NCBI GenBank assembly: GCA_043802785.1
Contig: JAZDKR010000010.1
Coordinates: forward strand, 1-60,035
DNA from: Elusimicrobiota bacterium
Lineage (GTDB): Bacteria; Elusimicrobiota; UBA8919
Length of the DNA stretch: 60,035 nucleotides
Direction: 5' to 3'
The notes under the pieces: model-generated
Seen by the model: only the letters and a program-made list of their open reading frames with translations
The model's database searches: none
Told to the model about the DNA's origin: nothing
Shown: positions 4,566 through 58,452 of the stretch, one piece after another
Layout: every line of letters starts with the position of its first letter
How positions within the stretch are numbered: the first letter of the stretch is position 1
Made by a program: the position numbers and the translations under genes

Positions 4566-4573
4566 ATTAACGA

Positions 4574-4649
4574 CAGAGATTAAGAGATTGAGAAATTTGG
4601 AAATTAGGGAAAACCCCTAATCTCATAATCTCATAATCTCTATTATCTG
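4574..4649. repeat. Convergent heptamer arrays (GAGATTA / TAATCTC)
   Basis: Imperfect 7-mer tandem repeats in inverted arrangement, ending 8 nt before the cdsA ATG. Confidence 0.8.
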
Positions 4650-4691
4650 ACTCCCTCTGCGTCTCCACGGTTCATATTTTTTCAGAATGGT

Positions 4692-5372
4692 TCACCCACC
4701 AAATCGTCTGTTTCTTTTTTGATATTCATCTATTGCTTCTATTAGATTTTTCTTTTTGAAATCGGGCCAGAGAATACTTGTCATATAAAATTCAGAATAT
4801 GCCGACTGCCACAAAAGGAAATTTGAAATACGGCTCTCACCGGAAGTCCTTATTATCAAATCGGGAGATGGCAAGTTCGTCGTATAAAGATATTTCTCAA
4901 AAATTTTTTCATCAACTTTTTTATGGGTACCGTCGGTTATGATTTTGTTAACCGCATCAACTATCTCCTGTCTGCCTCCGTAATTAAGTGCAATATTCAG
5001 TATCATACCTGTATTTTTTGATGTTTTTTCCATTGCTTCTTCAACTAATTTAACAATGTCAATCGGCAATTCAGAAAGACGCCCTATTATGTTAACCTTA
5101 ACATTGTTTTTGTGCAAACGCCCGAGTTCTTTTTTAATAAACAACTTCAAAAGACCGAAAAGACCCTTTATCTCGGATTTTGGTCTGTTCCAGTTTTCCG
5201 TTGAAAACGCATACAATGTCAAAACCCCAACCCCAATATCGTTGGCTGCTATCACAATTTCTCTCACACTTTTCATACCAGCGTGATGCCCATAGAGACG
5301 AGGAAGTCCCCTTTTTTTAGCCCAACGGCCATTGCCGTCCATTATTATCGCTATGTGTTTGGGTATATTCAT
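4692..5372 (-). CDS. uppS: Undecaprenyl diphosphate synthase (isoprenyl transferase)
   Basis: HIAIIMDGNGRWA, FSTENWNRP and RTSGESRISNFLLWQ motifs. Confidence 0.97.
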   Translation of the reverse strand: MNIPKHIAIIMDGNGRWAKKRGLPRLYGHHAGMKSVREIVIAANDIGVGVLTLYAFSTENWNRPKSEIKGLFGLLKLFIKKELGRLHKNNVKVNIIGRLSELPIDIVKLVEEAMEKTSKNTGMILNIALNYGGRQEIVDAVNKIITDGTHKKVDEKIFEKYLYTTNLPSPDLIIRTSGESRISNFLLWQSAYSEFYMTSILWPDFKKKNLIEAIDEYQKRNRRFGG

Positions 5373-5470
5373 TCGCTTCGCTCTTACGCGAATTCCCGCA
5401 AATCTAACGCGAATTATCGCAAATTATTCGCGTGTATTCGCGATGTTCTCTCATTCGCGTTCATTCGCGT
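5373..5470. repeat. ACGCGAAT...ATTCGCGT inverted/tandem repeat element
   Basis: Near-identical elements at about 28267-28356, 50822-50885 and 58814-58903. Confidence 0.8.
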
Positions 5471-5474
5471 TTCT

Positions 5475-6032
5475 TCAGACCGTCATTATCTCTTTTTCTT
5501 TCTGTATCAGTATTTCGTCTATTTTTTTTATATAATTTTCTGTAAGTTTTTGCATTTCATCCTGCGATTTGAATTTTTCATCTTCAGTGATTTTTTTTTC
5601 GTCAAAGATTTTTTTTACAAGTTCCAGCGAAATTCTTCTCTCGTTCCTTAATTCAATTTTGTGGTCTTCCGCCATTTTTTTTGCGGTCTTAATAATATCT
5701 TTCCTGCGTTCCTCAGTAAGTTGCGGAATAGGAAGCCGTATAACCTTACCGTCATTTTGAGGTGTAATTCCGATACCCGCTTTTAATATCGCTTTTTCAA
5801 GTTCTTGTAAGACACCTTTATCCCACGGTGTTAGCACAATCAGCCGCGGCTCCGGGATTGAAATACCCGCTACCTGATTTACCGGCAGGTCTGAATCATA
5901 ATATCTCACTTTTACCGTGTCCAAAATCGCAGGAGTCGCACGGCCGGTTTTAAGCATCAAAAATTCCGATTTAAGATGTTCTAATGTCTTTTTCATTTTT
6001 TCTTCCGTTTCAACTAAAATCTGTTTTGGCAT
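5475..6032 (-). CDS. frr: Ribosome recycling factor
   Basis: TGRATPAILD and PQLTEERRK motifs; downstream of pyrH. Confidence 0.97.
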   Translation of the reverse strand: MPKQILVETEEKMKKTLEHLKSEFLMLKTGRATPAILDTVKVRYYDSDLPVNQVAGISIPEPRLIVLTPWDKGVLQELEKAILKAGIGITPQNDGKVIRLPIPQLTEERRKDIIKTAKKMAEDHKIELRNERRISLELVKKIFDEKKITEDEKFKSQDEMQKLTENYIKKIDEILIQKEKEIMTV

Positions 6033-6046
6033 AGAAAATCTCCATT

Positions 6047-6140
6047 CAGGACTAAGTTGTAAGTTGTAAGGATTAAGCGGGCAGTGTCAAAAAACTTAAT
6101 CCTTATCACTTAATCCTTACCACTTAATCCTTACCACTTA
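6047..6140. repeat. Convergent heptamer arrays (GGATTAA / TTAATCC-CTTACCA)
   Basis: 7-mer tandem repeats around a central AAAAA; the element overlaps the pyrH TAA stop. Confidence 0.75.
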
Positions 6141-6836
6141 TAGATGAATAACTGAACCAACATTTTTTCCAAAGACCGCTTTTAACATATTCCCACTTTT
6201 ATTAAAATTGAAAACTATGATTTCAATTTTATGCTTACGGCATAATGAAAATGCTTCTATGTCCATTACTTTCAGATTTTTTTTTATCGCATCATCATAT
6301 GAAATTTCTTTGATAAGTTTGGCATTTGGATTTTTTTTAGGGTCGTCATCATATAAACCGTCAACATTAGTTGCTTTTAATATCAATTCTGCTTTTGACT
6401 CTACGGCGAAAATTGCGGAAGCGGTATCGGTAGTAAAATGGGGACGTCCGGTGCCTCCAACCATAATAACGATGTTTTTATTTTTCCAAGCATTATCTAT
6501 TTTTTCAAGTGTGAACTGCTGTAAAAAATTACCCACACCAAAAGAAGAAAACACTTTTGCCGGAATATTTTTTGATTTGAACCTCTCGTTTAAAACCATA
6601 CCATTAATAAGTGTTGCCGTCATACCTATGTAATCCGCAGCCGTTTTGTCAATAAGTTTACCGTTCACACTACCACGCCAGATATTGCCACCGCCAACCA
6701 CAATTCCAATAGAAACGGCTTTTTTATAAACGGGAACTATTTCAGATATTATTTTATCAACTGACGAAAAATCAATCCCGTCACCGTTATTACCAAGTGC
6801 TTCACCTGAAAGTTTTATAATGATTTTTTTATACAT
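6138..6836 (-). CDS. pyrH: Uridylate kinase
   Basis: KLSGEAL, GGGNIWRG, ADYIGMTAT, FTTDTA and VDGLYDDDP motifs. Confidence 0.96.
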   Translation of the reverse strand: MYKKIIIKLSGEALGNNGDGIDFSSVDKIISEIVPVYKKAVSIGIVVGGGNIWRGSVNGKLIDKTAADYIGMTATLINGMVLNERFKSKNIPAKVFSSFGVGNFLQQFTLEKIDNAWKNKNIVIMVGGTGRPHFTTDTASAIFAVESKAELILKATNVDGLYDDDPKKNPNAKLIKEISYDDAIKKNLKVMDIEAFSLCRKHKIEIIVFNFNKSGNMLKAVFGKNVGSVIHL

Positions 6837-6854
6837 ACCATCATCGTGGAGTGA

Positions 6855-6951
6855 GGGAAAAGTTTCTGCAGAGCCTCGATTTGCGACTTATTCGTTCCAG
6901 GAGCAAATCGCAGAGCGAGTTCTAACGAGCGTCTCAAAGAAACTTATTCCC
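6855..6951. repeat. MITE-like element of about 97 bp with terminal inverted repeats
   Basis: GGGAAAAGTTTCT ... AGAAACTTATTCCC termini and an internal CGATTTGC/GCAAATCG stem. Confidence 0.55.
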
Positions 6952-6960
6952 GAACGACAT

Positions 6961-7575
6961 TTATTCTTCGCCTATCTTGAATCTTGTAAATCTTTTTACC
7001 GAAATATTTTCACCGAGTTTAGCAACCGCATCAATTATAAGTTCCTTTACTTTCTTATTTCCGGATGTTTCTCTGATATACGGTTGTTCAAGAAGACAAA
7101 TTTTTTCATAAAATTTATCAAGACGGCCGGTTATTATTTTGTCAATGATTTTTTCGGGTTTACCTTCCTTCAACGCTTGTGCTCTCAGCACCTCTTTTTC
7201 TTTTGACAATTCATCGGCGAGGATATTTTCAATTCCCACAACCATAGGCGATGTCGCTGCAATCTGCATGGAAATTTCTTTGCCAAGATTCTGAAAATCT
7301 TCCGTCTTGGCAACAAAATCGGTCTCACAGTTCAATTCCAACAAAACCCCTAACTTGCTCCCCGGATGGATATATGAAAATATCAAACCCTCTTTGGCTG
7401 TCCTTGAAGATTTTTTAAGTGCAATCGCAATTCCTTTTTCCCTTAATTTTGCAACCGCCTTTTCCTCGTCGCCACCTGTTTCTATAAGCGCCTGTTTGCA
7501 GTCCATCATCCCACAACTTGTTTTTTCACGCAGACGAGCAACCATCTCACCCGTTATTTTGACAGTTTGTAACAT
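6961..7575 (-). CDS. tsf: Elongation factor Ts (short form)
   Basis: LREKTSCGMMDCK and ELNCETDFVA motifs. Start moved to ATG 7575, after a GGAGGT SD. Confidence 0.97.
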   Translation of the reverse strand: MLQTVKITGEMVARLREKTSCGMMDCKQALIETGGDEEKAVAKLREKGIAIALKKSSRTAKEGLIFSYIHPGSKLGVLLELNCETDFVAKTEDFQNLGKEISMQIAATSPMVVGIENILADELSKEKEVLRAQALKEGKPEKIIDKIITGRLDKFYEKICLLEQPYIRETSGNKKVKELIIDAVAKLGENISVKRFTRFKIGEE

Positions 7576-7595
7576 TTTTTTTACCTCCATTGGCA

Positions 7596-7697
7596 GTTGT
7601 AAGGATTAAGTCGCTCACCCCGACAAGTCGGGGTTCGCTTTAAGTATTAAGTTTTTTCTTAATCCTTACAACTTATAACTTAATCCTGACCTCTTAA
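7596..7697. repeat. Convergent heptamer array with a nested CCCGACAAGTCGGG hairpin
   Basis: GGATTAAG ... CTTAATCC arms between rpsB and tsf. Confidence 0.7.
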
Positions 7698-7700
7698 TCA

Positions 7701-8567
7701 TTAGTCCTGCTTTATTCCTTCCACTTCTTTCACAATTCCCTTGTCTTCTGTTATCGGTATTTCCTCGTCGGAAGAAAATTTTTCCTCTGCCGATATGTTT
7801 TGTCCACCTGCGGCGGAGTCTGCAACGGAACCTACGGTGGATCCTCCGGCGGAAACCATAGTTGACAAACCGCTTTCACTCTTAATCGCAGATTTACCTT
7901 CTATAACAGCATCTGCAATAACACTTACAAGCAAGGATATGGATTTTATCGCATCATCGTTTCCGGGAATGCAATGGTCAACCACATCCGGATCACTGTT
8001 TGTATCGCAAATAGCAACCACCGGAATTTTAAGACGTCGGGCTTCTGCTACCGCAGTTTTTTCATTAACAGGATCCACAACAAATATAAGTCCGGGAATA
8101 GAATGCATATCCTTAATTCCCGAAAGAGCGATAGATAGTTTTTTCATCTCCTTCGTCAGAACAGATATTTCCTTTTTGGGAAGTTTTTCAAGAATACCAT
8201 CTGTTTTCATTTTTTCCAAATCATTAAGTCGGGCAATGTTCCTCTTGATTGTCTCAAAATTTGTCAAAGTACCGCCCAACCATCTGGATACCACATAATG
8301 GACACCACATCTTACCGCTTCATTTTTTACAATTTCCTGGGACTGCTGCTTTGTTCCGACGAAAAGAATGCGTCCACCGGCCGCAGCAACATCTCTTACA
8401 AATTTGCATGCCTTTTTTAACTCCTTCACCGTTTTGGCGAGGTCAATAATATGAATCTTGTTCCGGTCCCCAAAAATAAATTTTCCCATTTTGGGATTCC
8501 ACTGACTTGTCTGATGCCCAAAATGGACACCCGCTTCTAATAAACCCTTCATTGATACATTGCTCAT
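7701..8567 (-). CDS. rpsB: 30S ribosomal protein S2
   Basis: [22 protein letters not shown] and [10 protein letters not shown] motifs. Confidence 0.98.
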
Positions 8568-8582
8568 TTTTATTACCCCCCC

Positions 8583-8686
8583 GTTAAGGATTAAGGATTA
8601 AGACGCTTCGCTTTAAGGATTAAGTTTTGATGCCCTTCTTAATCCTTATCACTTACTACTTAATCTTTACAACTTACCACTTAATT
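8583..8686. repeat. Convergent heptamer arrays (AAGGATT / AATCCTT-CTTACCA)
   Basis: Directly visible 7-mer repeats in the rpsB leader region. Confidence 0.75.
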
Positions 8687-9670
8687 CTATGTTTTCATTT
8701 TCTCAAATAACTTAAAAAAAATCAAGTAGAATTTGAAAAAAATACGGTTAAAAAATCCGCTTCTCCTTACCCATTTCACAACTTTTATCGGCGTATCTTC
8801 TGAAACGGTCGCTTGACCTACCACACCGGCGGCAAGACGAACCATAAGGGTAACGCCATTTTTTGAATGTGTAATGTTATGAATTTTGCACGGAATCGCA
8901 ATGACTCCAAAAATGTTTCTTCCACCTATAAGACCACTTAAATACTGTGATATCTCCCGATTATCAGTAATAAGAACAGCGATTTCGTCGCCAGGCATTA
9001 GAACACCGGCTTTGAGAATAACGCCACCCGATGAAACCGGCATTACATCAATTGTAAACTGGTTAACCAAACTGAAATCATACTCGTTAAATTCAAACTC
9101 CGTCTGCGGCGGAAAAATCTTGTCAGATATTTTTTTGAACTGCGTGAGATTAAGTTCCTCGGATAAAATCTCAAAATTAACCGCGGATGTTGATAACGGC
9201 TCCCTTAAAATGTCCTCCAAGATATCGGCAACTTCCGTAATGTTATTTTTTTTTACTGCGTCAAAAAAACTTTCGTTATATTCGTCTAAAATTTCATCGA
9301 CAATTTTTTTTTCTATACTCAGCGTCATATCCTGAATGCTACCAGGCATAAGCCGAGTCGTATAAAGTTTTTTGTCGTATTCACACCAGTTCTGCTGTAA
9401 ATCTGTTTCATAAACCTTCGGATTATATGTTACCAAAGCACGCGTCCTTAAATGCCGACGGTGATTTATATCCACGATAATCATAATCATTCCATAAAGA
9501 TGATTACCATATGTATAAAATTTACCTTTTATTACGACTATATCCTTAAGCAAATCAAAAATTTTTGATATGGATTTTGATATGTTGTAATTGCACGATT
9601 CAAGAGCAATCTGTGCCTGCCCCTCGTCACAACCAGTTTCTTCCATAACTATTCTTATTTTTTCCTGCAT
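8687..9670 (-). CDS. Hypothetical protein with an N-terminal UBA/EF-Ts-N-like helical domain
   Basis: Long ORF co-oriented with the operon; the N-terminus IRIVMEETGCDEGQAQIALESCNYNI resembles the UBA-like domains of EF-Ts and NAC. Confidence 0.7.
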   Translation of the reverse strand: MQEKIRIVMEETGCDEGQAQIALESCNYNISKSISKIFDLLKDIVVIKGKFYTYGNHLYGMIMIIVDINHRRHLRTRALVTYNPKVYETDLQQNWCEYDKKLYTTRLMPGSIQDMTLSIEKKIVDEILDEYNESFFDAVKKNNITEVADILEDILREPLSTSAVNFEILSEELNLTQFKKISDKIFPPQTEFEFNEYDFSLVNQFTIDVMPVSSGGVILKAGVLMPGDEIAVLITDNREISQYLSGLIGGRNIFGVIAIPCKIHNITHSKNGVTLMVRLAAGVVGQATVSEDTPIKVVKWVRRSGFFNRIFFKFYLIFFKLFEKMKT

Positions 9671-9796
9671 ATTACGTCCAGAGTCCTAACTGCGTTCAAG
9701 TTCCAACGGCGTTCACGAGTTCACGGGTTCACGAGTTGATGTGTTGACACATAAACACATGAACACCTTTTTGTAGTTTTGAACGCCGTTTGCTTC

Positions 9797-10720
9797 TTAT
9801 GCACGCAAATGAACCTTATCATAAATCTTTTTCATCATTTGTGCAGTAACATGCGTGTAAATCTGAGTCGTGGCAAGATTCATATGCCCCAACATTTCCT
9901 GAACGCTTCTTATGTCGCATCCGTTATCAAGAAGATGCGTGGCAAATGTATGCCTCAATGAATGCGGAGTGATTTTTTTTGTGATGCCTACTTTTTTGAG
10001 ATATTTTTTAAGCATTTTCTGGATGCATCTTGCCGATAACTTTTGTCCCGCTTTAGCAGAATTCCCGGTAAACAAAACTGCGGAAGAATCATTCCGCAGT
10101 TTTAGATATTTTCTTATAATATCAAGTGCAGAATCACCGACAGGAATAAGCCGTTGCTTGGAACCCTTGCCCATAACCTTAACCGTGCCGGAAAAATAAT
10201 CAATATCAGTTTTACTCAGAGTTGTAAGTTCCGAAATTCGCAAGCCCGAAGAATATAATAATTCCAAAATCGCTCTGTCTCTTAGTCCTGATATTTTTGC
10301 GCCAGGGCGAGTATCGGGTGCAGATAAAATTAGATTAATTTCTGCAACAGTTAAAAAATTCGGAAGATGTTTTTCTGCCTTTGGTGTAAGTATGAAATCC
10401 ATCGGCGATATGATAAGCACTTTGCATTTAACAAGAAAATTAAAAAATCCTCTTAATGCTGCAATCTTTCTTATTATACTGGATTTTTTTTCAACCGGCT
10501 GAAGAACATTTGCCAAATAATCCCTAACAGTCAACTTATCGGTATTTTTTATATCAAGTTTCTTTCTCTCCAAAAACATGCTAAATTGTTCTATGTCCCT
10601 ACGATAAGCAAGGGCAGTATTTTCTGATATATTTTTTTGAATCTTCAAAAACTGTATGAACTTTTCTATGTTCTCACCTTGTTTCTGGTTTATTGTCGTT
10701 TCCGTCATCTTTTCCCTCAT
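9797..10720 (-). CDS. xerC: Tyrosine recombinase XerC/XerD
   Basis: RDRAILELLYSSGLRISE, GKGSKQR, HSLRHTFATHLL and LGH...TTQIYTHV; follows topA in the conserved dprA-topA-xerC order. Confidence 0.9.
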   Translation of the reverse strand: MREKMTETTINQKQGENIEKFIQFLKIQKNISENTALAYRRDIEQFSMFLERKKLDIKNTDKLTVRDYLANVLQPVEKKSSIIRKIAALRGFFNFLVKCKVLIISPMDFILTPKAEKHLPNFLTVAEINLILSAPDTRPGAKISGLRDRAILELLYSSGLRISELTTLSKTDIDYFSGTVKVMGKGSKQRLIPVGDSALDIIRKYLKLRNDSSAVLFTGNSAKAGQKLSARCIQKMLKKYLKKVGITKKITPHSLRHTFATHLLDNGCDIRSVQEMLGHMNLATTQIYTHVTAQMMKKIYDKVHLRA

Positions 10721-10764
10721 CTATTACAAAAAACTTGCCACGGAAAACACGGAGAACTACTTGA

Positions 10765-11009
10765 ATCAGGATTAAGGATTAAGAAGGGCAGGATTAAGTT
10801 ATAAGTTATAAGAATTAAGAAGTCAGGATTAAGAATTAAGAAGTCAGTATTAAGAATCAAGAAGTCAGGATTAAGAATTAAGTAGTAAGAATTAAGTAAA
10901 AACTTAATCCTTAATCCTTAATCCTTATCACTTATCACTGCCCTTCTTAATACTTACCACTTAATACTTACCACTTATCACTTACCACTTACCACTTACC
11001 ACTTAATTC
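10765..11009. repeat. Large convergent heptamer array (about 245 bp)
   Basis: Runs of GGATTAA/AGAATTA/AGAAGTC, a central AAAAA, then TTAATCC/CTTACCA runs, forming a long imperfect inverted repeat. Confidence 0.85.
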
Positions 11010-11055
11010 TGTCTTTCTTCCGTGCACTCCGTGGCAAATGTTCTTGACTTTGTGG

Positions 11056-13056
11056 TTACGGAGTTTTCTGGATATTTTTTGTATTTTTACATTTGGGATA
11101 ACCACTACACGCAAGAAATTTTCCGCGACGACCGGATTTTACTAACATAACTTTACCGCATTTTTCGCATACCTCATCCGTTTTTTCTGGAACAATTTTT
11201 TTACCTTCTTTGTCCAAAGACATTGTATTTCTGCATTTCGGAAAATTGGAACAAGCCATGAACTTGCCGAATCTTCCATCACGAATAACCATCGGAGAAC
11301 CACACTTCAAACATTTCTCGTCGGTCTCAATGACTTTTTTAATACTTTCCATATTTGCTTTTGCGTTAGCAAGTGTTTTAGCGAAAGGAGTATAAAAATC
11401 AGATAACATTTTTACCCATTCAATTTTACCATCAGCAATCCCATCAAGTTTCTCTTCCATTTCCGCAGTAAAATTCAAGTCAATAATTTCAGGAAAATAT
11501 TTTTTTAAAATATCTATTACTGTAAAACCGACTTCCTGTGGAATAAATTTCATTTTTTCGATTTGTACATATCCCCTATTTTTAAGGGTTGATATCGTCG
11601 GCGCATATGTTGATGGTCTTCCAATACCTCGTTCTTCAAGCGTCTTTATCAGCGATGCCTCATTATATCTCGGTGGCGGGTCACTAAAATGTTGTTTTGG
11701 GGTGATCTTCTCCGATATAAGTTTGTCTCCTTCATTCATATCAGGAAGCATCGTTTCCTTTTCTCCATCGGATTCAATGTAGATTTTCAAATAGCCATCA
11801 AACTTTATTGATGAGCCGGTGGCACGAAAAATATATTCCTTCACTTTTATGTCCACTGAAACAGAATTCACTATTGCCGAAGACATCTGGCTTGCAACAA
11901 ATCTTAACCAAATAAGTTCATAGAGTTTATTCTCATCTTTTTCAAGTTTTAATGTATGCACGGTTTTGGTCACATCTGTCGGCCTAATTGATTCATGTGC
12001 TTCCTGCGCCGATTTGCTTTTTGTTTTGTAAATGCGTGATTTAGCAGGCAAATATTCTTTGCCAAAATTTTTATTGATATACTCGGATGCCTGTTTTTGA
12101 GCAACTTTTGATACATCCAAAGAATCGGTTCTCATATAAGTAATAAGTCCGTTTTCATATAATTTTTGGGCAATAGACATCGTTCTGTTTGAACTGAAAC
12201 CCAATTTATTAACAGCATCTCTTTGGAGTGTAGATGTCATAAACGGTGGTAGTGGATTTTTTATTCTTTCACTTTTTGTAACCTTTGATACTACAAATTC
12301 ATTGTTCTTTATATCGTCAATTATTTTTTTTGCATCCGCTTCCGTTTTTATTGATGTCGTTTTTACTGTGTACTTTTCCGCAAACAACTGATAGGCAGTT
12401 GAGGAATAATATTTTTTTTCACCATTAGAAATCAAATCTGCATTAAAGGACTGACCGTTTTTATTAAGTTGCGCTGAAATGGTCCAGTACTCCTGCCCAG
12501 CGAATTTTTTAATTTCGATTTCCCGCTCAATAATAAGCCGGAGCGTAACAGATTGCACCCTGCCTGCCGAAAGTCCCTTCCTTACATTTTTTCCCAGAAG
12601 TGGACTTATCTGATAACCGACGAGACGGTCTATAATTCTTCTTGATTGCTGTGCATCAATAAGATTTAAGTCAAGAGGCCTGGGATTTTTTATTGCATCC
12701 TCAATTGCCGATTGAGTAATTTCGTGAAAAACAATTCTTTTTATTTTTTTTATGTCAAGTCCGCCTGCTGTGCTAATATGCCAACCGATTGCTTCGCCCT
12801 CACGATCATAATCGGTCGCTATGAATATATCTGACGATGACTTTATGGTAGAAATTATTTTCTTCATCGTATCTTCTTTACCTGGAAGAATCTGATACGA
12901 CGGCTGAAAATTGTTTTTTACATCTACGCCAAGTGTTCTCTGTGGTAAATCACGGACATGTCCCATTGAGGCAATAACAGTAAATTTCCCTTTCAGAAAA
13001 CCTGTTATCATCTTTGCTTTCGTCGGTGACTCAACAATTACAAGTGGATTTTTCAT
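11056..13056 (-). CDS. topA: DNA topoisomerase I (type IA) with C-terminal C4 zinc ribbons
   Basis: LVIVESPTKAK, ATDYDREGEAI, SAGRVQS, ITYMRTDS and QEAHESIRPT motifs. Start taken at MKNPLV (13056). Confidence 0.97.
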   Translation of the reverse strand: MKNPLVIVESPTKAKMITGFLKGKFTVIASMGHVRDLPQRTLGVDVKNNFQPSYQILPGKEDTMKKIISTIKSSSDIFIATDYDREGEAIGWHISTAGGLDIKKIKRIVFHEITQSAIEDAIKNPRPLDLNLIDAQQSRRIIDRLVGYQISPLLGKNVRKGLSAGRVQSVTLRLIIEREIEIKKFAGQEYWTISAQLNKNGQSFNADLISNGEKKYYSSTAYQLFAEKYTVKTTSIKTEADAKKIIDDIKNNEFVVSKVTKSERIKNPLPPFMTSTLQRDAVNKLGFSSNRTMSIAQKLYENGLITYMRTDSLDVSKVAQKQASEYINKNFGKEYLPAKSRIYKTKSKSAQEAHESIRPTDVTKTVHTLKLEKDENKLYELIWLRFVASQMSSAIVNSVSVDIKVKEYIFRATGSSIKFDGYLKIYIESDGEKETMLPDMNEGDKLISEKITPKQHFSDPPPRYNEASLIKTLEERGIGRPSTYAPTISTLKNRGYVQIEKMKFIPQEVGFTVIDILKKYFPEIIDLNFTAEMEEKLDGIADGKIEWVKMLSDFYTPFAKTLANAKANMESIKKVIETDEKCLKCGSPMVIRDGRFGKFMACSNFPKCRNTMSLDKEGKKIVPEKTDEVCEKCGKVMLVKSGRRGKFLACSGYPKCKNTKNIQKTP

Positions 13057-13161
13057 ATTCGCTTCGCTCATTATCGCTAAACCGACGCTAAACTTATACG
13101 CAAAACTGACGCCAAATGTTTCGCGTCTGTTTTGCGTTATTGTTCCGCGCCTGTTCTGCTT

Positions 13162-14268
13162 CTATTTCTTCCTGATATATTTTTTTCCGGGCAATTCTGA
13201 AATTAGACCATCCATCACGAGTTCTAAAAGAATTACAGAAAGTTTTTCAATCGGGATGTTACCTTTCTCAAACAATACATCTATATGAACCGGCTCATAA
13301 TTTATTGCTTCCAACACAATAATGGATTCATTGTCTAAATTTTTTGTTTCTTTTATAACTTTAAGATTTTCTTTTGTTTTTTTGACAAAATTTTTCAAAA
13401 CATTTATTTCATTGATTATATCATCAACCGACTCAACAAGTTTTGCTCCGTCTTTTATAAGTTTATGCGGGCCCCGTGAGTATTTTGAAAAAATGTTGCC
13501 TGGTATTGCGAAAACATCTCTACCCTGTTCAATTGCACTTTTGGCGGTTATCAAGGCACCGCTTTTTTCATCCGCCTCAATTACAACAACCCCAAGTGAA
13601 ATCCCACTGATTACTCTGTTTCTCCTTGGAAAATTTTGTTTATCCGGTCTTGTGTGCATATTGAACTCGGAAATTACAGCACCGTTTTCGGCAATTTTAT
13701 CTTCCAATTTTCTGTTTTCAGGAGGATAATGATATAAAAGCCCGTTTCCCAGAACCGCAATCGTTCTTCCTTTTTCATTAACCACCGTCTGATGAGCAAT
13801 TGTGTCAACACCCCTGGCAAGTCCGCTTACGATGGTAATACCACTATTAGAAAGTTCGCGGGCAAGATATTCGCACACCATTTTTCCATATGAAGTAATT
13901 TTTCTTGTGCCAACGACACCGACGGCAACCACATCCTTTTTGTCAAGTGAACCTTTTACATAAAGAATCGGCGGATAATCATATATGGTCTTTAATGTCT
14001 GTGGATATTCGTCCATAAATGAGGCAATTATTCTTACCCCGTTTTTTTCCGCTTCTTCTTGTTCTTTTACGACATCAAACTTTTCTCTATCGGAAATTAT
14101 AGTTTCCGCTGTTTTTCTCTCAATGCCCTCAATATGCATTAAATCATTAACTGACACAGTCAGTATTTTTCCGGCATTGCCAAAAAAATCCAGAAATTTT
14201 TTGAACCTTGCTGGGCCAATAACGGAAATTTGATTAAGTATAATCCAGGATTCTAACTCGGTAGGCAT
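13162..14268 (-). CDS. dprA: DNA-processing protein DprA (Smf)
   Basis: VVGTRKIT, VSGLARGVD, NFPRRNRVISG and KSGALITA motifs. Start taken at ATG 14268. Confidence 0.96.
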   Translation of the reverse strand: MPTELESWIILNQISVIGPARFKKFLDFFGNAGKILTVSVNDLMHIEGIERKTAETIISDREKFDVVKEQEEAEKNGVRIIASFMDEYPQTLKTIYDYPPILYVKGSLDKKDVVAVGVVGTRKITSYGKMVCEYLARELSNSGITIVSGLARGVDTIAHQTVVNEKGRTIAVLGNGLLYHYPPENRKLEDKIAENGAVISEFNMHTRPDKQNFPRRNRVISGISLGVVVIEADEKSGALITAKSAIEQGRDVFAIPGNIFSKYSRGPHKLIKDGAKLVESVDDIINEINVLKNFVKKTKENLKVIKETKNLDNESIIVLEAINYEPVHIDVLFEKGNIPIEKLSVILLELVMDGLISELPGKKYIRKK

Positions 14269-14277
14269 GACGGGGTT

Positions 14278-27653: not shown

Positions 27654-27665
27654 ATATTTACTAAA

Positions 27666-31267: not shown

Positions 31268-31275
31268 ATTAACAC

Positions 31276-47587: not shown

Positions 47588-49273
47588 TTACAATTCAATG
47601 AAACCCCAAGGGAGAACGGATGCCGATGAATCGGCAACTACAATCTCTTTTAAGTAGTTATCCGGATTTATGTTGCATTTTGAGAAAGCATCAAGCCATT
47701 TTTCGTAGGAAAATGACTCGTTCCAGTTGTCAAATTTACAACCGTTTTTATGTGCTGCTTCCAAAACAGAACATAGTTTTTCATCACCTCTGGCAAAAAC
47801 TGCTTCAATTGTGGACATTTCAGGTTTGTGTGATTTCACTTCGGCAGGAAGTTTCTTTTTCAGATAGAGTTTTTTTTCGTTAAAATATTCAAACCCAAAA
47901 AACTTTTCTCTCTCAAAAACGGTGTGCGGTTTCGGTACAAACGGGGAAATGGTAATGTTCAGATTTAGTTGCGGTGTCTGTTTTTTTATACTTCGGACAA
48001 GTGATACAATTCCCTCAATATCCTCATTGGTTTCCGTCGGTAACCCAAGCATAAAATAAAGTTTTATGAGTCGCCAACCAGATTTATGTGCATAATTTGT
48101 CGTCTCCAAAATTTCCGCATCCGTGATAAATTTCCCAATATGTTTTCTTAACCGCTCTGTCCCCGCCTCCGGTGCAAATGTTAAAGATGTTTTTTTGAAA
48201 ACACGGGTCTTTGCCGCTAAATCCACCGATGCCGGATTGCATCTCAAAGACGGAAGTGCCACCGCCACATTTTTTGGAATACAAATTTTTAGAACATCAT
48301 CCATCAACTCGTTTATTTCCGGATAGTCAGAAGTGGATAGCGAAAGAAGAGAAATTTCGTCATAGCCGGTTGAAGCAAGTCCTTTCTCAATAATCTCCAA
48401 AATTTTTTCTTTGCTTCTTATCCGACGAGGAGAATACAATTTTGATGCCTGACAAAAAAAACAGCCCCTTGAACAGCCGCGCATTATTTCCACATTCAGA
48501 CGATTCTGCACGGTGTTCAAAAACGGAACAATCGGCTTCATTGGATATTCTGCTGTCTCCAAATCAACAACATTTTTTTTGATGAATTTTTTACCGTCGT
48601 GCACCCCATTAGAAGTATCGTGGTCCGCCTGATGCGGACCACTTCTAACGGGGTAAAACGAAGGCACATACACCGACGGAATTTCCGAAAGTTTTGATAA
48701 CAGTTCCGTCTTGTCTGTAATCTGTAATCTGTAATTTGTAATTTTTGTAATTATATCTTCCCCATCACCGATAACAAATGCATCTATAAACTCTGACAAT
48801 GGCAGAGGATTGACGCAGGCAGGACCTCCAGCAATAATCAATGGGGACTGTCCCTTGCGGACTGTCCCCATTCTATCTTTTGTTTTTAAGGGTATTTTCG
48901 CCAAATCCAAAATGTTAAGAATGTTTGTATAGCACAACTCGTGCTGAATGTTAAAACCAATAATATCAAATTCGTTAAGCGGCGTTTTTGTCTCAATAGA
49001 AAAAAGCGGAAGATTATTTTTCCTTATCAGTTCCTCCATATCCTGCTCTGGCGAGAATGCTCTTTCACAGACGATATGCCCATTTTTATTTAGGATATTG
49101 TAAAGAATTTGCATTCCAAGATTGGACATTCCGATTTCATAAAGGTCTGGAAAAACAAGACAAAACCGTAAGTGATAAGTGGTAAGTGGTAAGTGGTAAG
49201 TGGTATTCCACTCCTCACCAATATACTGTGATTGTTTTTTTACAAATGGTAAGAATTTTTTTATTGTATCCAT
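47588..49273 (-). CDS. TIGR03960-family B12-binding radical SAM protein
   Basis: FPDLYEIGMSNLG, IAGGPACVNP, EIMRGCSRGCFFC (CxxxCxxC), FAPEAGTERLR and YFMLGLPTE motifs. Confidence 0.9.
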   Translation of the reverse strand: MDTIKKFLPFVKKQSQYIGEEWNTTYHLPLTTYHLRFCLVFPDLYEIGMSNLGMQILYNILNKNGHIVCERAFSPEQDMEELIRKNNLPLFSIETKTPLNEFDIIGFNIQHELCYTNILNILDLAKIPLKTKDRMGTVRKGQSPLIIAGGPACVNPLPLSEFIDAFVIGDGEDIITKITNYRLQITDKTELLSKLSEIPSVYVPSFYPVRSGPHQADHDTSNGVHDGKKFIKKNVVDLETAEYPMKPIVPFLNTVQNRLNVEIMRGCSRGCFFCQASKLYSPRRIRSKEKILEIIEKGLASTGYDEISLLSLSTSDYPEINELMDDVLKICIPKNVAVALPSLRCNPASVDLAAKTRVFKKTSLTFAPEAGTERLRKHIGKFITDAEILETTNYAHKSGWRLIKLYFMLGLPTETNEDIEGIVSLVRSIKKQTPQLNLNITISPFVPKPHTVFEREKFFGFEYFNEKKLYLKKKLPAEVKSHKPEMSTIEAVFARGDEKLCSVLEAAHKNGCKFDNWNESFSYEKWLDAFSKCNINPDNYLKEIVVADSSASVLPWGFIEL

Positions 49274-49384
49274 ATAAAATCAGGGAGTAGGGGATAGGGA
49301 GTAGAAAGTAGTAAATCAACGATTTTAGCGAATTTACATTCGCCGCTACTAATCCCCCTATCCCCTATCCCCTATCCCCTGCCT

Positions 49385-52656: not shown

Positions 52657-52661
52657 AAAAT

Positions 52662-52749
52662 CAGGGGGTAGGGGATAGGGTTTAGTTAAAGTCAATGACT
52701 TTTCTACGCCCTATCCCCTATCCCCTATCCCCTATCCCCTATCCCCTAT
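52662..52749. repeat. GGGATAG / CCCCTAT convergent heptamer arrays
   Basis: CCCCTAT occurs about 5 times; the element ends 5 nt before the mrdA ATG. Confidence 0.8.
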
Positions 52750-52761
52750 TCACTGCCTCTC

Positions 52762-55575: not shown

Positions 55576-55681
55576 ACAAGCATATCAACAATTTTGAGAT
55601 TGCTTCCCGAGTAGGTTCGCCTCTGGCGAAGGACTTCGTCCTCGCAATGACATTCAGTTTATTTGTAATTTGTAATTGTCT

Positions 55682-57028
55682 TCACGGTGTAATAACTACC
55701 GTTGGAATATTCGGAAAAATCAGGTATTTTGAAATCACATTTTTTATATCCTGTGGTTTTACTTTTTTTATATTTTTTATGTAACTTTCGGCGATTTTTC
55801 TGTTGCCCAGCACAGCATAAAATCCAAGTTCTTCCGCTTTGCCATCCGGTGTTTGTTCCTGCAAAAGTTTATCCCGTATAAGAAGCACCCTTGCTCTGTC
55901 AAGTTCTTCGTCGGTTACATTTTCACAAGTAAGTTGGCTAAGTTCAATTAAAACTTTATTTGATGCAGCGGATATATTTTCCGATGAACATTCCGCATAC
56001 ACATAAAATAACCCGGGTCCCTTGTGTGTGACAAATGAAGCAGAAATACCGTAGGCAATCTTGGTCTCTTCAACAAGTTTTTTATAAAGCCGTGATGCCC
56101 TGCCCGTTCCCATAACATATGAAGCAATATCAAGCGAATACTGGTCGCTACTTTTTATATTCGCCGCAGGAAAACCCATTATTATGTATGCTTGTGAAAT
56201 GTCTTTTTTGATTATTTTTTTTTGGGAAAGTTTATTTTCAGGTATTGAATTGTAAATAATTGTTCTATCTTTTTTTCTTTTTGTTTTTTTTAATCCCGCC
56301 AAGGCGGGGCTATTTTTCAGAAAACTGAACATTTCTTTTTTGTCAAAATTGCCGGAAACAACAATGAACATATTTTCGGGTATGTAAAATTTCCTGTGAA
56401 ATGATAAAAAATCATCCCGTTTTAATTTTGAAACTGTCTCCTCTGTTCCAATGACTCTTTGAGCATAGCGAAAAAAGTTACGATAGACATAACTATAAAA
56501 TTCATCAAAAAGTTGTGATTGCGGCTCGTCGTCCTTTCTTTTGATTTCTTCCAATATAATCTTTCGCTCTTTTTCAATTTCTTCTTCAGGAAATAGGGGG
56601 TTTAAAACGACATCGGTGAGAATTTCTGCGGCTTTAAGTGAATAACTGCTCGGTGCAATGGAATAAAAATATGTAAAGTCCTTTGAGGTTGCAGCGTTTA
56701 TAATTCCGCCAAATTTTTCTATTTCGGGGGCAATCTGTTTTTGGGTTTTTGTCGGTGTTCCCTTAAAAATAAGATGTTCTACGAAGTGAGAAATTCCAGA
56801 AATGTTTTTATCTTCATTCACTGCACCTGCAGAAATCCATATCTGGATTGCAGTGGTAGTTGCTGACGGGTCGGTGTCAAAAATAACTGATATGCCGTTT
56901 TCTAATTTTTTATTCTCGGTGGGATTCAAATTGGATATTAACAGGAGCGTCACGAAACAACCGCTGAGAAAAAACCTGAAAATGTTGATGAAGTTGATGA
57001 AGAAAATTGAAAAATCAATCTTATTCAC
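55682..57028 (-). CDS. M16-family zinc peptidase, catalytic subunit
   Basis: SHFVEHLIFKGT (HxxEH), INAATSKDFT and IEKERKIILEE motifs. Confidence 0.92.
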   Translation of the reverse strand: MNKIDFSIFFINFINIFRFFLSGCFVTLLLISNLNPTENKKLENGISVIFDTDPSATTTAIQIWISAGAVNEDKNISGISHFVEHLIFKGTPTKTQKQIAPEIEKFGGIINAATSKDFTYFYSIAPSSYSLKAAEILTDVVLNPLFPEEEIEKERKIILEEIKRKDDEPQSQLFDEFYSYVYRNFFRYAQRVIGTEETVSKLKRDDFLSFHRKFYIPENMFIVVSGNFDKKEMFSFLKNSPALAGLKKTKRKKDRTIIYNSIPENKLSQKKIIKKDISQAYIIMGFPAANIKSSDQYSLDIASYVMGTGRASRLYKKLVEETKIAYGISASFVTHKGPGLFYVYAECSSENISAASNKVLIELSQLTCENVTDEELDRARVLLIRDKLLQEQTPDGKAEELGFYAVLGNRKIAESYIKNIKKVKPQDIKNVISKYLIFPNIPTVVITP

Positions 57029-57101
57029 AATCTAAAGACCGCACTATTGCTTTGTGACAGAAGCTCCGATAGTACTTGTCATTGCGAGGTCGCTTGTGCA
57101 A

Positions 57102-57304
57102 CCGATTTAATCGGGCAACTACAAAACGGCTACAAAACGGCAAAGGCGCCCGATAAATCGGGCAACTACAAAACTACAAAACGGCAAAGGCGCCCGATAA
57201 ATCGGGCAACTACAAAACTACAAAACGGCAAAGGCGCCCGATAAATCGGGCAACTACAAAACGGCTACAAAACGGCAAAGGCGCCCGATAAATCGGGCAA
57301 CTAC
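57102..57304. repeat. Tandem array of 45-48-bp REP-like units
   Basis: Four copies of GGCAAAGGCGCCCGATAAATCGGGCAACTAC with CTACAAAAC(GG) linkers, plus a partial first unit. Confidence 0.88.
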
Positions 57305-57334
57305 TTAATCTCCCAATCTCTTAATCTCTGCTTT

Positions 57335-58363
57335 TTATTCTAACCGTTTCCGTGCTTTTTTTATGTTTTCAAGTTCTTCTAAGTACTTGCCTGTTCCTAA
57401 AACGACGCAGGTGGTGGGGTCTTGTGCGAGATAAACAGGAAGATGGGTTTCTTTTGACAGCAAATCACACATACCGCGCATTAATGAACTGCCGCCAGCC
57501 ATAACTATTCCTCTGTCAACCAATTCTGCTGCAAGTTCAGCAGGGGTTCTTTCAAGAACACCTTTAACCATTTCAACAATTGCCTTAACCGGCACCATCA
57601 ACGCCTCTCTTATATCCTTGCTTGAAATATTTATCGTTCTCGGAAGGCCCTGAATTAAATCAAGTCCTTTCACATCCATCGTCTCCTCTTTTTGAAGAGG
57701 AAAAACGGATCCGATCGCGATTTTTATGTTTTCCGCCGTTCTATAACCGATTGCCAAATTGTGGTGCTTCTTAAAAAATGAAACAATCGCTTCGTCAAAC
57801 TCGTCACCAGCAATTTGGATTGAATCGGAAACAACCATTCCGCCCAAAGAAATCACCGCCGCCTCGGTGGTGCCGCCGCCGATGTCAATAACCATATTAC
57901 CTGTTGCCTCCTGGATAGGAAGACCAGCACCTATTGCTGCAGCCATCGGCTCTTCAATAAGATGAACCTCTCTCGCACCCGCCTGTTCCGCCGCCTCGCG
58001 AACAGCACGACGTTCAACTTCCGTAATCCCCGACGGAATACCAATTACAATTCTCGGATGAAGAAACGTTTTCCTGTTATGAACTTTTTTGATAAAATAC
58101 CGAATCATCTTTTCGGTAATGTCAAAATCGGCAATGACGCCGTTCCTTAATGGCCTGATGGCCTCAATTGATGCGGGTGTCTTGCCAACCATTTTTTTTG
58201 CATCTTCACCTATTGCCTCTATCTCTTTTGTGTCTTTGTTATATGCGACAACGGAGGGCTCTCTCAAAACAATGCCCTGTCCTTTTACATAGACGAGTGT
58301 CGTGGCTGTGCCAAGATCAATCCCCATATCATTTGAAAAAAACGAGAAAATAAAATCAAACAT
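57335..58363 (-). CDS. mreB: Rod shape-determining protein MreB
   Basis: [31 protein letters not shown] and AGGSSL motifs. Confidence 0.97.
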
Positions 58364-58371
58364 GATAACAT

Positions 58372-58452
58372 CAGAGATTAGAAAATTAGGAAATTGGGAA
58401 ATTGGGAAATAGCAAAACCCTAATCTCCTAATCTCTTAATCTCTTAATCTCC
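58372..58452. repeat. Convergent heptamer arrays (GGAAATT / TAATCTC)
   Basis: The element ends 8 nt before the mreB ATG. Confidence 0.75.

Follow-up and report, generated by a model that had tools for sequence, protein, structure and literature searches.

Gene-less, IVS-like palindromic elements with heptamer arms occupy gene junctions in an Elusimicrobiota genome, with a proposed hairpin-bridged route to translation

The window, by which we mean the whole 60,035-nt stretch of DNA analyzed, comes from a metagenome-assembled genome of Elusimicrobiota, an uncultured groundwater bacterium and not a cyanobacterium, and the cyanobacterial short tandem repeat (STRR) framework that the first-pass annotation cited for its repeats is therefore inapplicable. 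That annotation counted about 14 inverted arrays between genes, and the count holds; it described the units as heptamers, and 7-nt units are indeed found, together with units of 8 nt. The elements are:

4566-4691, minus strand: uppS-to-cdsA spacer with a GAGATTA-type hairpin (4575-4641) and an SD-like GAGGGAG just 5′ of the hairpin foot; it ends CTCTG TCGTTAAT ATG, the tail (4566-4573) adjoining the cdsA ATG (4565).
6033-6137, minus strand: GGATTAAG/GTGGTAAG hairpin beginning on the base after a stop codon; end CCTG, then an ordinary SD (GGAG) and ATG.
8568-8686, minus strand: GGATTAAG-type hairpin directly after the stop codon TAG, followed by a G-rich SD and ATG.
10721-11055, minus strand: large compound nested GGATTAAG/GTGGTAAG hairpin (hairpin at 10781-11019), within a CACGGAG/CTCCGTG hairpin; inner insert boundaries AAGGGCAG and CTGCCCTT.
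27654-27804, minus strand: GAGATTA/GAGAATA hairpin before accC, its left arm entering the 3′ end of the upstream gene and its right arm ending in CTCTG, 13 nt 5′ of the accC ATG.
31268-31368, minus strand: aroK-to-aroB spacer, an asymmetric GAGATTA-type array; CTCTG GTGTTAAT ATG, the tail (31268-31275) adjoining the aroB ATG (31267).
34955-35138, minus strand: GAGATTA hairpin; end CTCTG GTGTTTATC, then SD AGGAG and ATG.
43028-43142, minus strand: GGGGATA/CACCCTA hairpin before the tmRNA gene, its loop holding a nested GC hairpin; end CACCCTG CCTTTAT(G), 7-8 nt 5′ of the tmRNA 5′ end (GGGGGTGA...).
44016-44139, plus strand: tRNA-to-pfkB element (arrays 44030-44131), its upstream end AGAGAGGCA adjoining the tRNA 3′ end (44015); CTCCG ATGTTAAT ATG, the tail (44132-44139) adjoining the pfkB ATG at 44140.
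49274-49384, minus strand: rodA-to-radical-SAM spacer, TAA AGGCAG (GGGGATA)n ... CTCCCTG plus tail; CCCTG ATTTTAT ATG (tail 49274-49280, ATG 49273).
52657-52761, minus strand: element before mrdA, TGA GAGAGGCAG (GGGGATA)5 - loop - CCCTATCCCCTACCCCCTG plus ATTTT; CCCCCTG ATTTT ATG, start at 52656.
57029-57334, minus strand: mreB-to-mreC spacer, upstream end TAA AAAGCAG with a GAGATTA arm (57304-57329); a 44-nt hairpin repeat in 4.3 copies (57109-57304) interrupts it.
58364-58456, minus strand: rplQ-to-mreB spacer, TAA AGGCG (GAGATTA)4 - loop - (CCTAATTT)n CTCTG; CTCTG ATGTTATC ATG, the tail (58364-58371) adjoining the mreB ATG (58363).
59886-60035, minus strand: CTTAATCC/ACTTATA array reaching the contig end and adjoining a GTG-called start at 59885.

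The unit families of the genome include GAGATTA, GGATTAAG/GTGGTAAG, GGGGATA, GTGATTAA, and others, and all share one pair of ends. Upstream, a purine run of 2-6 nt, usually GG-final, is followed by CAG and comes immediately after the stop codon, or the tRNA 3′ end, of the gene before it. Downstream, the C-rich arm finishes in CTG and is followed, genome-wide, by a conserved 7-8-nt tail, RYGTTAAY. The seven genes cited in the first-pass annotation as having an array end close to an SD-less start all re-read as described: the spacer from array end to ATG is 8 nt for cdsA, aroB, mreB, and pfkB, 7 nt for the radical SAM gene, 5 nt for mrdA, and 13 nt for accC, and a GGAG, GAGG, or AGGA core is absent from all seven spacers. 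The start codons used have support for cdsA, uppS, aroB, mreB, and the radical SAM gene, whose N-termini are conserved in 9-13 relatives; for mrdA the true start is 52656, and a TTG at 52695 was discarded. In the genome-wide check that had been proposed, the distances are not random. When the array-end motif C[TC]G-NN-[GT]TTA was scored, an ATG stood exactly 8 nt from the motif G at 16 of 82 array ends (7 nt at four, 9 nt at two), compared with 17 of 1097 non-array occurrences of the motif (1.5%; binomial p = 2e-13 for the excess). Similarly, the foot lies 7-9 nt from a called start in 15/82 hairpins with periodic arms vs. 6/176 non-periodic ones (Fisher p = 1e-4).

This 8-nt distance is the conserved tail of the element itself and not a spacing specific to translation, since the tail also adjoins SD boxes and the 5′ ends of tRNA and tmRNA genes. 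The elements occupy the entire gap from the end of one gene to the start of the next, and the distance looks fixed because these gaps in compact operons are of near-zero length, with the tail adjoining whatever comes next. The idea that polar elements home to start codons, the tail itself being an SD-independent initiation region given to the downstream gene, is thus unlikely, despite a tail that is constant across unit families, adjoins the ATG of about 30 genes, is A/U-rich, and is unpaired in folds. It could also draw on a divergent pair, lepA and its neighbor, where the 8-nt tail alone stands before both genes, with neither an upstream ORF nor a 5′ AGG, and on heptamer repeats elsewhere that stop 1 nt short of SD-less starts (MacGregor, 2015, PMC4679880). 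However, at least 7-12 genes carry the tail immediately 5′ of an ordinary SD, and the same tail lies 7-8 nt upstream of the 5′ end of the tmRNA and of tRNA-Ala, Gly, Cys, Lys, Gln, and Leu, so its presence is not tied to translation starts and the elements are not aimed at start codons as such. The general start context of the genome is A-rich and differs from the tail sequence. The type of end tracks the neighboring gene and not the orientation of the element, and a hairpin between divergent genes carries a start-type end on both sides; neither the targeting nor the polarity suggested in the first-pass annotation was borne out. Its further suggestion that the translation-initiation region had been replaced stands in so far as the elements occupy the would-be ribosome-binding region in about 30 genes, although the tail found there is the element's own and not start-specific.

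In comparison with relatives the arrays behave like inserted, non-autonomous elements, as previously supposed: some relatives have nothing at the orthologous junction and others have unrelated units there, the fillings being independent of each other. Empty junctions read TAAATG or TAAAAATG, or are ATGA overlaps, that is, plain TAA-N(0-2)-ATG or overlapping genes. The uppS-cdsA junction is empty (GGCGGTTTGTAAAAatg) in relatives G010, G005, and G002 and in five metagenome loci; aroK and aroB meet in an ATGA overlap in G008 and G011, and the rodA and radical SAM genes overlap in G008 with no element. In 7 of 9 family genomes the rplQ-mreB junction is filled, but by different units, five of these genomes having the 8-nt distance, and in outgroups mreB is preceded by an ordinary SD. 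Empty cassette sites, also suggested earlier, were not found with the end motifs in this genome, and a search for a target-site duplication or transposition footprint of the elements found none. It has some appeal that copy numbers and units vary freely among relatives, and that the same 7-8-nt limit before coding sequences and tRNAs fits a steric "wall": immobile arrays might lengthen where they stand, through replication slippage and the formation of palindromes, until only the shortest single-stranded leader that ribosomes and RNase P can tolerate (about 7-8 nt) is left, as a by-product of DNA copying. We consider this quite improbable, as the 7-8 nt are a sequence conserved across unrelated loci and unit families rather than an ancestral spacer, the empty junctions of 0-2 nt hold no seed, insert boundaries (AAGGGCAG...CTGCCCTT) are nested inside arms, and gene-carrying versions exist.

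These versions, which the first-pass annotation proposed to look for as filled forms enclosing a small gene, are present in this genome with the same arms and gap. PF05635 has five matches; its three intact loci all sit inside inverted arrays flanked by a host stop and a host start, and a PF13366 nuclease gene is placed likewise at one locus. The host start follows the three PF05635 cassettes after 8 nt (glmS), 7 nt, and 6 nt, and the PF13366 cassette after 8 nt. PF05635 is the four-helix-bundle protein of 23S rRNA intervening sequences (IVSs), and PF13366 is a PD-(D/E)XK nuclease. In a wider sample, drawn from many phyla, of 58 PF05635 cassettes that have periodic arms, a co-directional start lies within 10 nt of the 3′ foot in 22, and a co-directional stop ≤7 nt before the 5′ foot in 30 (overlaps of up to 6 nt included). 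Because such genes occupy the same kind of arms elsewhere in the genome, the gene-less window elements are IVS-like, and it is well supported that each pair of arrays forms the arms of a small palindromic insertion element, a gene-less relative of the IVS-type cassettes. The IVSs of 23S rRNA with an S23p/PF05635 ORF (Coxiella, Leptospira, Salmonella) likewise have long terminal inverted repeats forming a stem and, on the 5′ side, an SD-like purine box followed by tandem heptamers, and arms of the same kind enclose PF05635 here. In Coxiella, the SD-like box and heptamers belong to an IVS that is cut by RNase III (Warrier et al., 2016, PMC4990558). In contrast to the rRNA IVSs, which sit in 23S rRNA helices, the present elements separate protein, tRNA, and tmRNA genes from one another, are gene-less in the window, and have a conserved 7-8-nt 3′ tail adjoining start codons; in them, excision by RNase III is hypothetical.

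The hairpin elements have displaced the ancestral ribosome-binding site. A start now looks SD-less because the old SD, inside the upstream gene at a TAA-N(0-2)-ATG or overlap junction, has been moved 70-150 nt away, and essential genes are left without a normal ribosome-binding site. Three of four window hairpins folded far better than shuffled sequences (z = -4.6 for mreB, -5.4 for pfkB, and -5.9 for radical SAM); the exception was the aroB array (z = -1.7). Tail and AUG were unpaired in each of the four. Stems are 20-40 bp long. Mismatches in the arms are compatible with G-U pairing more often on the sense than on the antisense strand (110 vs. 60, p = 1.5e-4), a bias that is not significant in non-periodic hairpins (131 vs. 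110), although the excess could partly reflect strand-biased C-to-T mutation. A GGAG/GAGG core at the 5′ foot was seen at 9/33 junctions without a downstream SD vs. 1/22 with their own SD (p = 0.04, in a small sample with imprecise foot calls). The AGG/GGCAG end is also found before tRNA genes and before genes with an SD of their own, which indicates that it belongs to the element itself rather than being selected as an SD at individual loci.

We infer that the downstream genes are translated by hairpin-bridged reinitiation or a split SD, or after RNase III processing. The sense transcript would fold into a long hairpin with the tail and AUG left single-stranded, so that the SD-like AGG/GAGG at its 5′ end and the stop codon of the upstream gene come to lie beside the AUG. 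Terminating ribosomes might then reinitiate there, and/or a split SD might act across the hairpin, as for genes 38 and 25 of phage T4 (Nivinskas, 1999; Malys and Nivinskas, 2009; reviewed in PMC3014915). In the T4 genes, too, a hairpin separates an SD-like box on its 5′ side from an AUG a few nucleotides beyond its 3′ side, so that folding would restore a functional spacing. However, the T4 hairpins are about 15-20 nt, unique, and experimentally proven, whereas those here are 70-240-nt repeat elements of inferred function, and their SD-like box is weak, often AGG alone. Coupling or a split SD cannot account for every case, because the lepA pair lacks both an upstream ORF and a 5′ AGG. RNase III cutting of the stem, as in rRNA IVSs, may act additionally or instead. 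That the elements are primarily IVS-like processing sites, their stems cut, the cistrons separated, and the downstream gene read from a short SD-less leader of residual arm and tail, is conceivable but doubtful. The shared architecture with IVSs cut mid-stem by RNase III (PMC4990558), the PF05635 cassettes with the same arms, the rnc gene (RNase III) in the genome, and the stem length all agree with it, but bulges every 7-8 nt break many arms, and essential genes would end on leaders without an SD and still need an initiation mechanism. Such processing is compatible with the reading we prefer and does not exclude it. As a whole, IVS-like gene-less insertion elements together with hairpin-bridged translation are the best explanation, to which we give a probability of about 0.6.

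Heptamer repeats and IVSs are known phenomena, of which the present elements are a variant. TAACTGA repeats of Beggiatoaceae, cyanobacteria, and Bacteroidetes also end at a fixed distance, 1 nt in the largest class, and canonical SDs are rare in their spacers (MacGregor, 2015, PMC4679880). Those are direct repeats of one unit, with a single inverted case, whereas inverted arms of many unit families, a separate conserved tail, empty and filled orthologous sites, and gene-carrying relatives distinguish the elements described here. In Xanthomonas and Nostoc, GGGAATC/GGGGAYT heptamers have the G-rich strand in sense <50 bp after stops and in antisense <50 bp before ORFs (Rehm et al., 2015, PMC4692102). 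These and the cyanobacterial STRRs share with our elements the G-rich strand rule, convergent pairs, and wide variation between relatives; they differ in phylum and units, and base-precise end motifs and abutment to ATG, SD, or tRNA are not described for them. The 7-8-nt phasing could suggest phased binding sites for a regulator of downstream translation (S1, Csp, CsrA-type, or the PF05635 pentamer), or else G-quadruplex or terminator elements, in line with proposals for the TAACTGA (PMC4679880) and GGGNATC (PMC4692102) repeats; GGGGATA arrays could form G4 structures and their tails (AUUUUAU) look like terminator U-tracts. We regard this as very unlikely: G4 is possible for the GGGGATA family only, most units (GAGATTA, GGATTAAG) lacking G-tracts; units differ between close relatives at the same junction, which leaves no conserved operator; housekeeping genes of every class stand downstream; and termination within essential operons, with no room for promoters, would be lethal. 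REP/REPIN-RAYT and MITE-type (Correia, RPE) elements are likewise multicopy short intergenic palindromes with nested insertions and occasional in-frame insertion into genes. Here, by contrast, no target-site duplication is visible, the arms are tandem 7-8-mers, and the RAYT-like Y1 genes found here have another, GC-rich REP at their flanks and not heptamer arrays.

The heptamer arrays are best explained as hairpin elements, similar to the intervening sequences (IVSs) of 23S rRNA, that fill the junction between the stop codon of one gene and the next gene's start codon. We hold this identity to be quite likely, while any single account of how the downstream genes are translated is doubtful; the explanation as a whole, to which we give a probability of about 0.6, falls between the two because it joins a well-supported identity with an inferred mechanism. 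To our knowledge, heptamer repeat arrays (STRR, Xanthomonas GGGAATC, and TAACTGA) have been without explanation for more than 30 years; those described here resolve, at the level of single bases, into elements with defined ends. They lie between essential genes (rplQ-mreB, uppS-cdsA, aroK-aroB, rodA-radical SAM, glmS, and lepA) from which the normal ribosome-binding site has been removed, raising the question of how an AUG located 8 nt past a 30-bp stem is translated without a Shine-Dalgarno (SD) sequence.

The assembly comprises 1.56 Mb in 93 contigs with 37% G+C, of which the window is contig C10. One end of this contig (59886-60035) falls within a compound array of 56-nt period; such arrays are probably behind many of the 93 assembly breaks, and the true number of arrays is therefore underestimated. 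Nearly all genes of the window are on the minus strand, so the spacers were read on that strand. TRF identified tandem arrays of period 7 and 8 in about 14 spacers, and in each the mRNA strand carries a purine/G-rich arm, a short loop, and a complementary C/T-rich arm. The start codons are kept in 9-13 relatives, and the DNA upstream of them is not conserved. All seven array-to-ATG distances cited in the first-pass annotation were correct:

Array ends, gaps, and start codons in the window
cdsA: CTCTG-TCGTTAAT-ATG
aroB: CTCTG-GTGTTAAT-ATG
mreB: CTCTG-ATGTTATC-ATG
pfkB, plus strand, ATG at 44140: CTCCG-ATGTTAAT-ATG
radical SAM gene: gap of 7 nt
mrdA, true ATG at 52656: gap of 5 nt
accC: gap of 13 nt

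Array units are taken as coding by naive ORF calling (27790-27830, 44107-44139, and 52657-52695). The longest-ORF starts of pfkB (44107) and mrdA (52695) fall within arrays, upstream of the real ones, and the gene upstream of accC has a C-terminus ending within GAGAATA units (27790-27830). For annotation, the elements also account for apparently SD-less starts and for mis-called ones, such as those of mrdA and pfkB, placed too far upstream.

Intergenic hairpins were counted across the genome using our own gene calls and a gapped dynamic-programming finder; together with motif-anchored counts, this replaced a seed-and-extend search and foot calling by RNAfold (30-nt flanks), which were too noisy. 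Arms with a period of 7 or 8 were present in 82 of 297 hairpins. The foot, or base of the stem, was 7-9 nt from a start in 15/82 periodic vs. 6/176 non-periodic hairpins (p = 1e-4). Where arrays end in C[TC]G-NN-[GT]TTA, the ATG begins exactly 8 nt past the G in 16 of 82 such ends (7 nt in four, 9 nt in two), against a background of about 1.5% per offset at 1097 non-array copies of the motif (p = 2e-13). A second census, made without the motif, gave the same peak (8 nt, n = 11; 7 nt, n = 2; 9 nt, n = 3). The observation of a short fixed spacing, first made in the window, is confirmed.

What sets the distance is the element itself. Inspection of all periodic hairpins showed the 8 nt before the ATG to be a conserved sequence, RYGTTAAY (e.g., GTGTTAAT, ATGTTATC, TCGTTAAT, and ATTTTAAC), which is common to all unit families of this genome and has no SD core. 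This tail is not the general start-codon context of the genome, which is A-rich with T at -1 and contains GTTAA at -6 to -2 in only about 17 genes. It is also kept, as CTG-NNGTTAA, where the ATG is farther off, and an ordinary SD then begins within 0-2 nt (CTG-TCGTTAA-T-AGGAGG-GAACG-ATG; CTG-GTGTTAA-C-GGAGGG-TTTCA-ATG). Similarly, 7-8 nt separate array ends from the mature 5′ ends of tRNA-Ala, Gly, Cys, Lys, Gln, and Leu and, in the window, from tmRNA; for tRNA-His the interval is 10 nt. Because the tail also precedes SD boxes, tRNAs, and tmRNA, the spacing is not peculiar to translation starts; the fixed distance equals the element's own tail in length, and the tail adjoins the next functional element of any kind.

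Other readings of the tail fared poorly. An extended -10 promoter or leaderless signal was rejected from sequence, as the geometry would set the transcription start within the ORF. A partial SD (GGUG/UGAU) fits only one third of the tails, in inconsistent registers; the 3′ end of 16S rRNA was not found in this MAG. Mirroring of the upstream stop codon by the tail's TTA, with pairing between them, is seen in some folds (radical SAM, contigs C3 and C33) with no covariation, since the tail is constant and the post-stop purine run ranges from 2 to 6 nt.

The case for insertion comes from orthologous junctions, compared by synteny with 10 family-level relatives (window 832-14286) and by targeted searches, the relatives and outgroups being numbered G001-G014. 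The uppS-cdsA junction is empty in G010, G005, G002, G007, G004, G003, G011, and five metagenome contigs (…GGCGGTTTGTAAAA-ATG), with an SD-like GGCGG or GGAGG within the last uppS codons; four unrelated arrays occupy it in the window, G008, G006, and G001, and the gap in G006 is again 8 nt (…ATCTG-TTGTTATT-ATG). At frr-uppS, G010 and G005 read GTGTAA-ATG, and G008 carries a 95-nt hairpin of AAAGATT units exactly between TAA and ATG. In G008 and G011, aroK and aroB overlap at ATGA. The rodA and radical SAM genes overlap in G008; six genomes have an array between the two, with a gap of 5-12 nt. The rplQ-mreB junction is filled in 7/9 family genomes by differing units, five of them with the 8-nt gap, and in outgroups G011-G014 an ordinary SD (AAAGG, GAGG, or AAGGA) lies 5-8 nt before the ATG. 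The existence of both empty and filled sites, which the first-pass annotation had proposed to look for, indicates that the arrays are insertions into stop-start gaps of zero to a few nucleotides. They have displaced an ancestral SD or stop/start overlap and turn over rapidly. Near-identical strains polymorphic for an insertion were sought in metagenomes, and only more distant, empty junctions were returned. At rodA-radical SAM (locus L144), G005 (UBA4817) reads TAA-AGGCAATTAAAA-ATG, with a single unit after the upstream-end motif and no hairpin; this may be a post-deletion remnant, in which AAGG, 9 nt from the ATG, would act as a normal SD.

At the upstream end, on the stop side, a purine run of 2-6 nt, mostly finishing in GG (e.g., AGG, AAAGG, GAGAGG, and AGGAGG), is followed by CAG; it immediately follows the in-frame stop of a real gene in 27 clean cases and, in the window, also a tRNA 3′ end. 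In the outward direction, both ends read as variants of a single palindromic consensus, CTG-CC-TTTA on the stop side and CTG-RY-GTTA on the start side, and compound arrays contain nested copies with the boundaries AAGGGCAG … CTGCCCTT. The fixed polarity initially proposed did not survive: in the divergent pair of lepA and its neighbor (contig C12), the hairpin has the start-type tail, with a gap of 8 nt, on either side, so that end type follows the neighboring gene. Elements have conserved CAG…CTG ends, and the whole genome gave no junction-type matches to end motifs joined without arms (GGCAGCTG, CAGCTG plus tail, and AGGCAG..CTGNNGTTA). In the cleanest empty/filled pairs (frr-uppS in G010 vs. 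G008, and uppS-cdsA), the insertion falls precisely at the boundary of TAA and ATG; no clear target-site duplication, which in transposon-derived MITEs accompanies the terminal inverted repeats, was seen.

Some elements of the same layout carry genes. The genome has five matches to PF05635 (23S_rRNA_IVP, here IVP) and one to PF13366 (PDDEXK_3). Each intact gene is within inverted tandem-unit arms, in the orientation of the flanking host genes, with a host stop before it and a host start after it; the elements of the window contain no PF05635 ORF.

Gene-carrying cassettes
IVP cassette before glmS, gap of 8 nt: TGA-AAGGGGCG-(ATTGAAAG)n-[IVP]-(TCAATTTT)n-TCAATAG-GTTTTATC-ATG(glmS)
Second IVP cassette, gap of 7 nt: …CTCAATTAAC-TTTTATT-ATG
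PF13366 nuclease cassette, gap of 8 nt: …GTTTAGCG-TATATAAT-ATG
IVP cassette with GGGGATA arms: TAAAAAGGCAG … CCCCTG-CCCTTT-ATG

Filled versions enclosing a gene, as the first-pass annotation had envisaged, therefore exist in similar arms, and its interpretation of the arrays is upheld in part: insertion sites and gene-enclosing versions were found, and fixed polarity and the likening to cyanobacterial STRR were abandoned. Among 80 PF05635 loci from many phyla, inverted arms were present in 64/76 that could be analyzed, 52 of the 64 being periodic. Of 58 cassettes with periodic arms, 40 have a co-directional ORF start no farther than 60 nt from the 3′ foot (22 of them ≤10 nt), and 45 have a co-directional stop at most 60 nt from the 5′ foot; in 30 of the 45, the stop precedes the foot by ≤7 nt or overlaps it by ≤6 nt. 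Cassettes of this type thus generally wedge themselves between a stop and a start; the gap of exactly 8 nt is specific to this bacterial family.

The Y1-transposase (PF01797) loci are a separate system. None of the four has heptamer arrays beside it; GC-rich REPs (AGCCCCATCGGGGCG...GTAG) surround the two strongest (C9 and C76), and GC-rich palindromes of other kinds surround the remaining two. RAYT-like Y1 genes with REPs (AGCCCCATCGGGGCG-CCTGTT..TAG), and solo REPs, were noted at C9:8914-9258 and C76:2847-3191, and also at C44:121, 1347, and 3388 and on C24 (minus strand). The solo REPs are found directly after the tail of heptamer elements (…CTCCG-GTGTTA|GCCCCATCGGGGCGTCCTGTTAATAG), as if TGTTA were the REP target.

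How ribosomes reach the downstream AUG can be approached from the fold. Three of four window hairpins tested fold far better than shuffled sequences (z = -4.6 to -5.9; the aroB array, z = -1.7), and in all four the tail and AUG are unpaired. Among arm mismatches in 78 co-directional periodic hairpins, 110 are G-U-compatible in the sense transcript vs. 60 in the antisense (p = 1.5e-4), compared with 131 vs. 110 in non-periodic hairpins. Strand-biased mutation could add to this excess, which points to selection on the structure of the sense transcript. A strong SD core (GGAG or GAGG) occurs ≤14 nt 5′ of the foot in 9/33 junctions without a post-hairpin SD vs. 1/22 with one (p = 0.04). With AGG/GAGG at the 5′ foot and the AUG 8 nt past the 3′ foot, the layout has the geometry of a split SD, in which the AUG follows a stable hairpin by 5-11 nt with no SD in between. 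Folding would bring the upstream stop codon and the 5′ purine box next to the AUG and would favor reinitiation by terminating ribosomes, presumably the way in which TAAATG and ATGA junctions were read in the ancestor. The same geometry across a hairpin is proven to work in T4 genes 38 and 25 (PMC3014915). If such bridging occurs here, it would offer selfish DNA a general route to occupy compact operons harmlessly.

A more specific version, which we regard as improbable, is that the elements are selfish hairpins bearing a portable split ribosome-binding site, whose two halves are the 5′-foot purine box, which resembles an SD, and the unpaired 8-nt 3′ tail. In a bacterial equivalent of ribosome shunting, a ribosome terminating on the upstream gene, or a 30S subunit retained by AGG/GAGG, would then skip a 70-240-nt hairpin at its base and arrive at the following AUG. 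With its ancestral SD displaced, the host gene would rely on a retained hairpin, which would account for junctions such as rplQ-mreB being filled across genera while arms were swapped. The AGG end also occurs before tRNA genes and is absent at the divergent lepA pair, which has no upstream ORF or purine box; both facts argue against a purely translational reading. As an alternative or addition to bridging, RNase III may cleave the stems, by analogy with rRNA IVSs. The genome has an rnc gene, and the Coxiella IVS carries an SD-like box followed by tandem heptamers (PMC4990558).

Cyanobacterial STRR, to which the arrays had been likened, share tandem heptanucleotide units in intergenic DNA, but their hosts are (heterocystous) cyanobacteria; the present host belongs to the Elusimicrobiota, and its MreB is 88-94% identical to that of three Elusimicrobia MAGs (UBA4817, NC_groundwater_1671, and CG06_land), the closest genomes. 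The units GAGATTA, GGATTAAG, and GGGGATA presumably also differ from the STRR1-3 words. The elements, with 82 periodic-arm hairpins in the genome, share with 23S rRNA IVSs the terminal inverted repeats that make a long stem. The IVSs enclose an S23p/PF05635 ORF and sit in helices 9, 25, or 45 of 23S rRNA; the copies in the window are all placed between protein, tRNA, or tmRNA genes. In REP/REPIN-RAYT systems, the repeats flank and are mobilized by the Y1 gene, unlike the heptamer arrays. The core phenomenon has published precedents: G-rich heptamers follow the same strand rule and occur in convergent pairs, with function not known (Rehm et al., 2015; PMC4692102), and TAACTGA arrays, in whose spacers SDs are rare, show a preferred fixed distance to the start, the largest class ending 1 nt before SD-less start codons (MacGregor, 2015; PMC4679880). 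The base-precise end motifs, a fixed distance set by a tail that equally adjoins RNA genes and SD boxes, orthologous junctions both with and without an element, and the co-occurrence with identically laid-out PF05635/PF13366 cassettes in one Elusimicrobiota genome appear new.

Several arrays have further internal structure. At 57109-57304, the GAGATTA element between mreB and mreC contains a nested tandem repeat, 4.3 copies of a 44-nt unit (AATCGGGCAACTACAAAAGCTACAAAACGGCAAAGGCGCCCGATA) that combines a GC hairpin with CTACAAAA words; the junction in relatives has ordinary heptamer hairpins or nothing. GGGGATA-family hairpins share a palindromic loop core, AAAGTCA(A/T)TGACTTT (window 52690-52715; C24:5922, C24:14957, and C26:31744), replaced in the window copies at 43028-43142 and 49274-49384 by an identical nested GC hairpin (TAGCGGCGAATGTAAATTCGC…). 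About 70 nt past its start (49168-49205), in the N-terminal region, the radical SAM gene contains an in-frame (CACTTAC)5 array; the proteins of relatives are without it and alignable only from residue 4. The arms of the single PF13366 nuclease gene are of the CGCGAAT/CGCGAAA type (CGCGAAACAGA), and 10-11-nt arrays of this type give similar hairpins at window 5382-5471, 28305-28328, and 58830-58902 and at C89:19850-20380.
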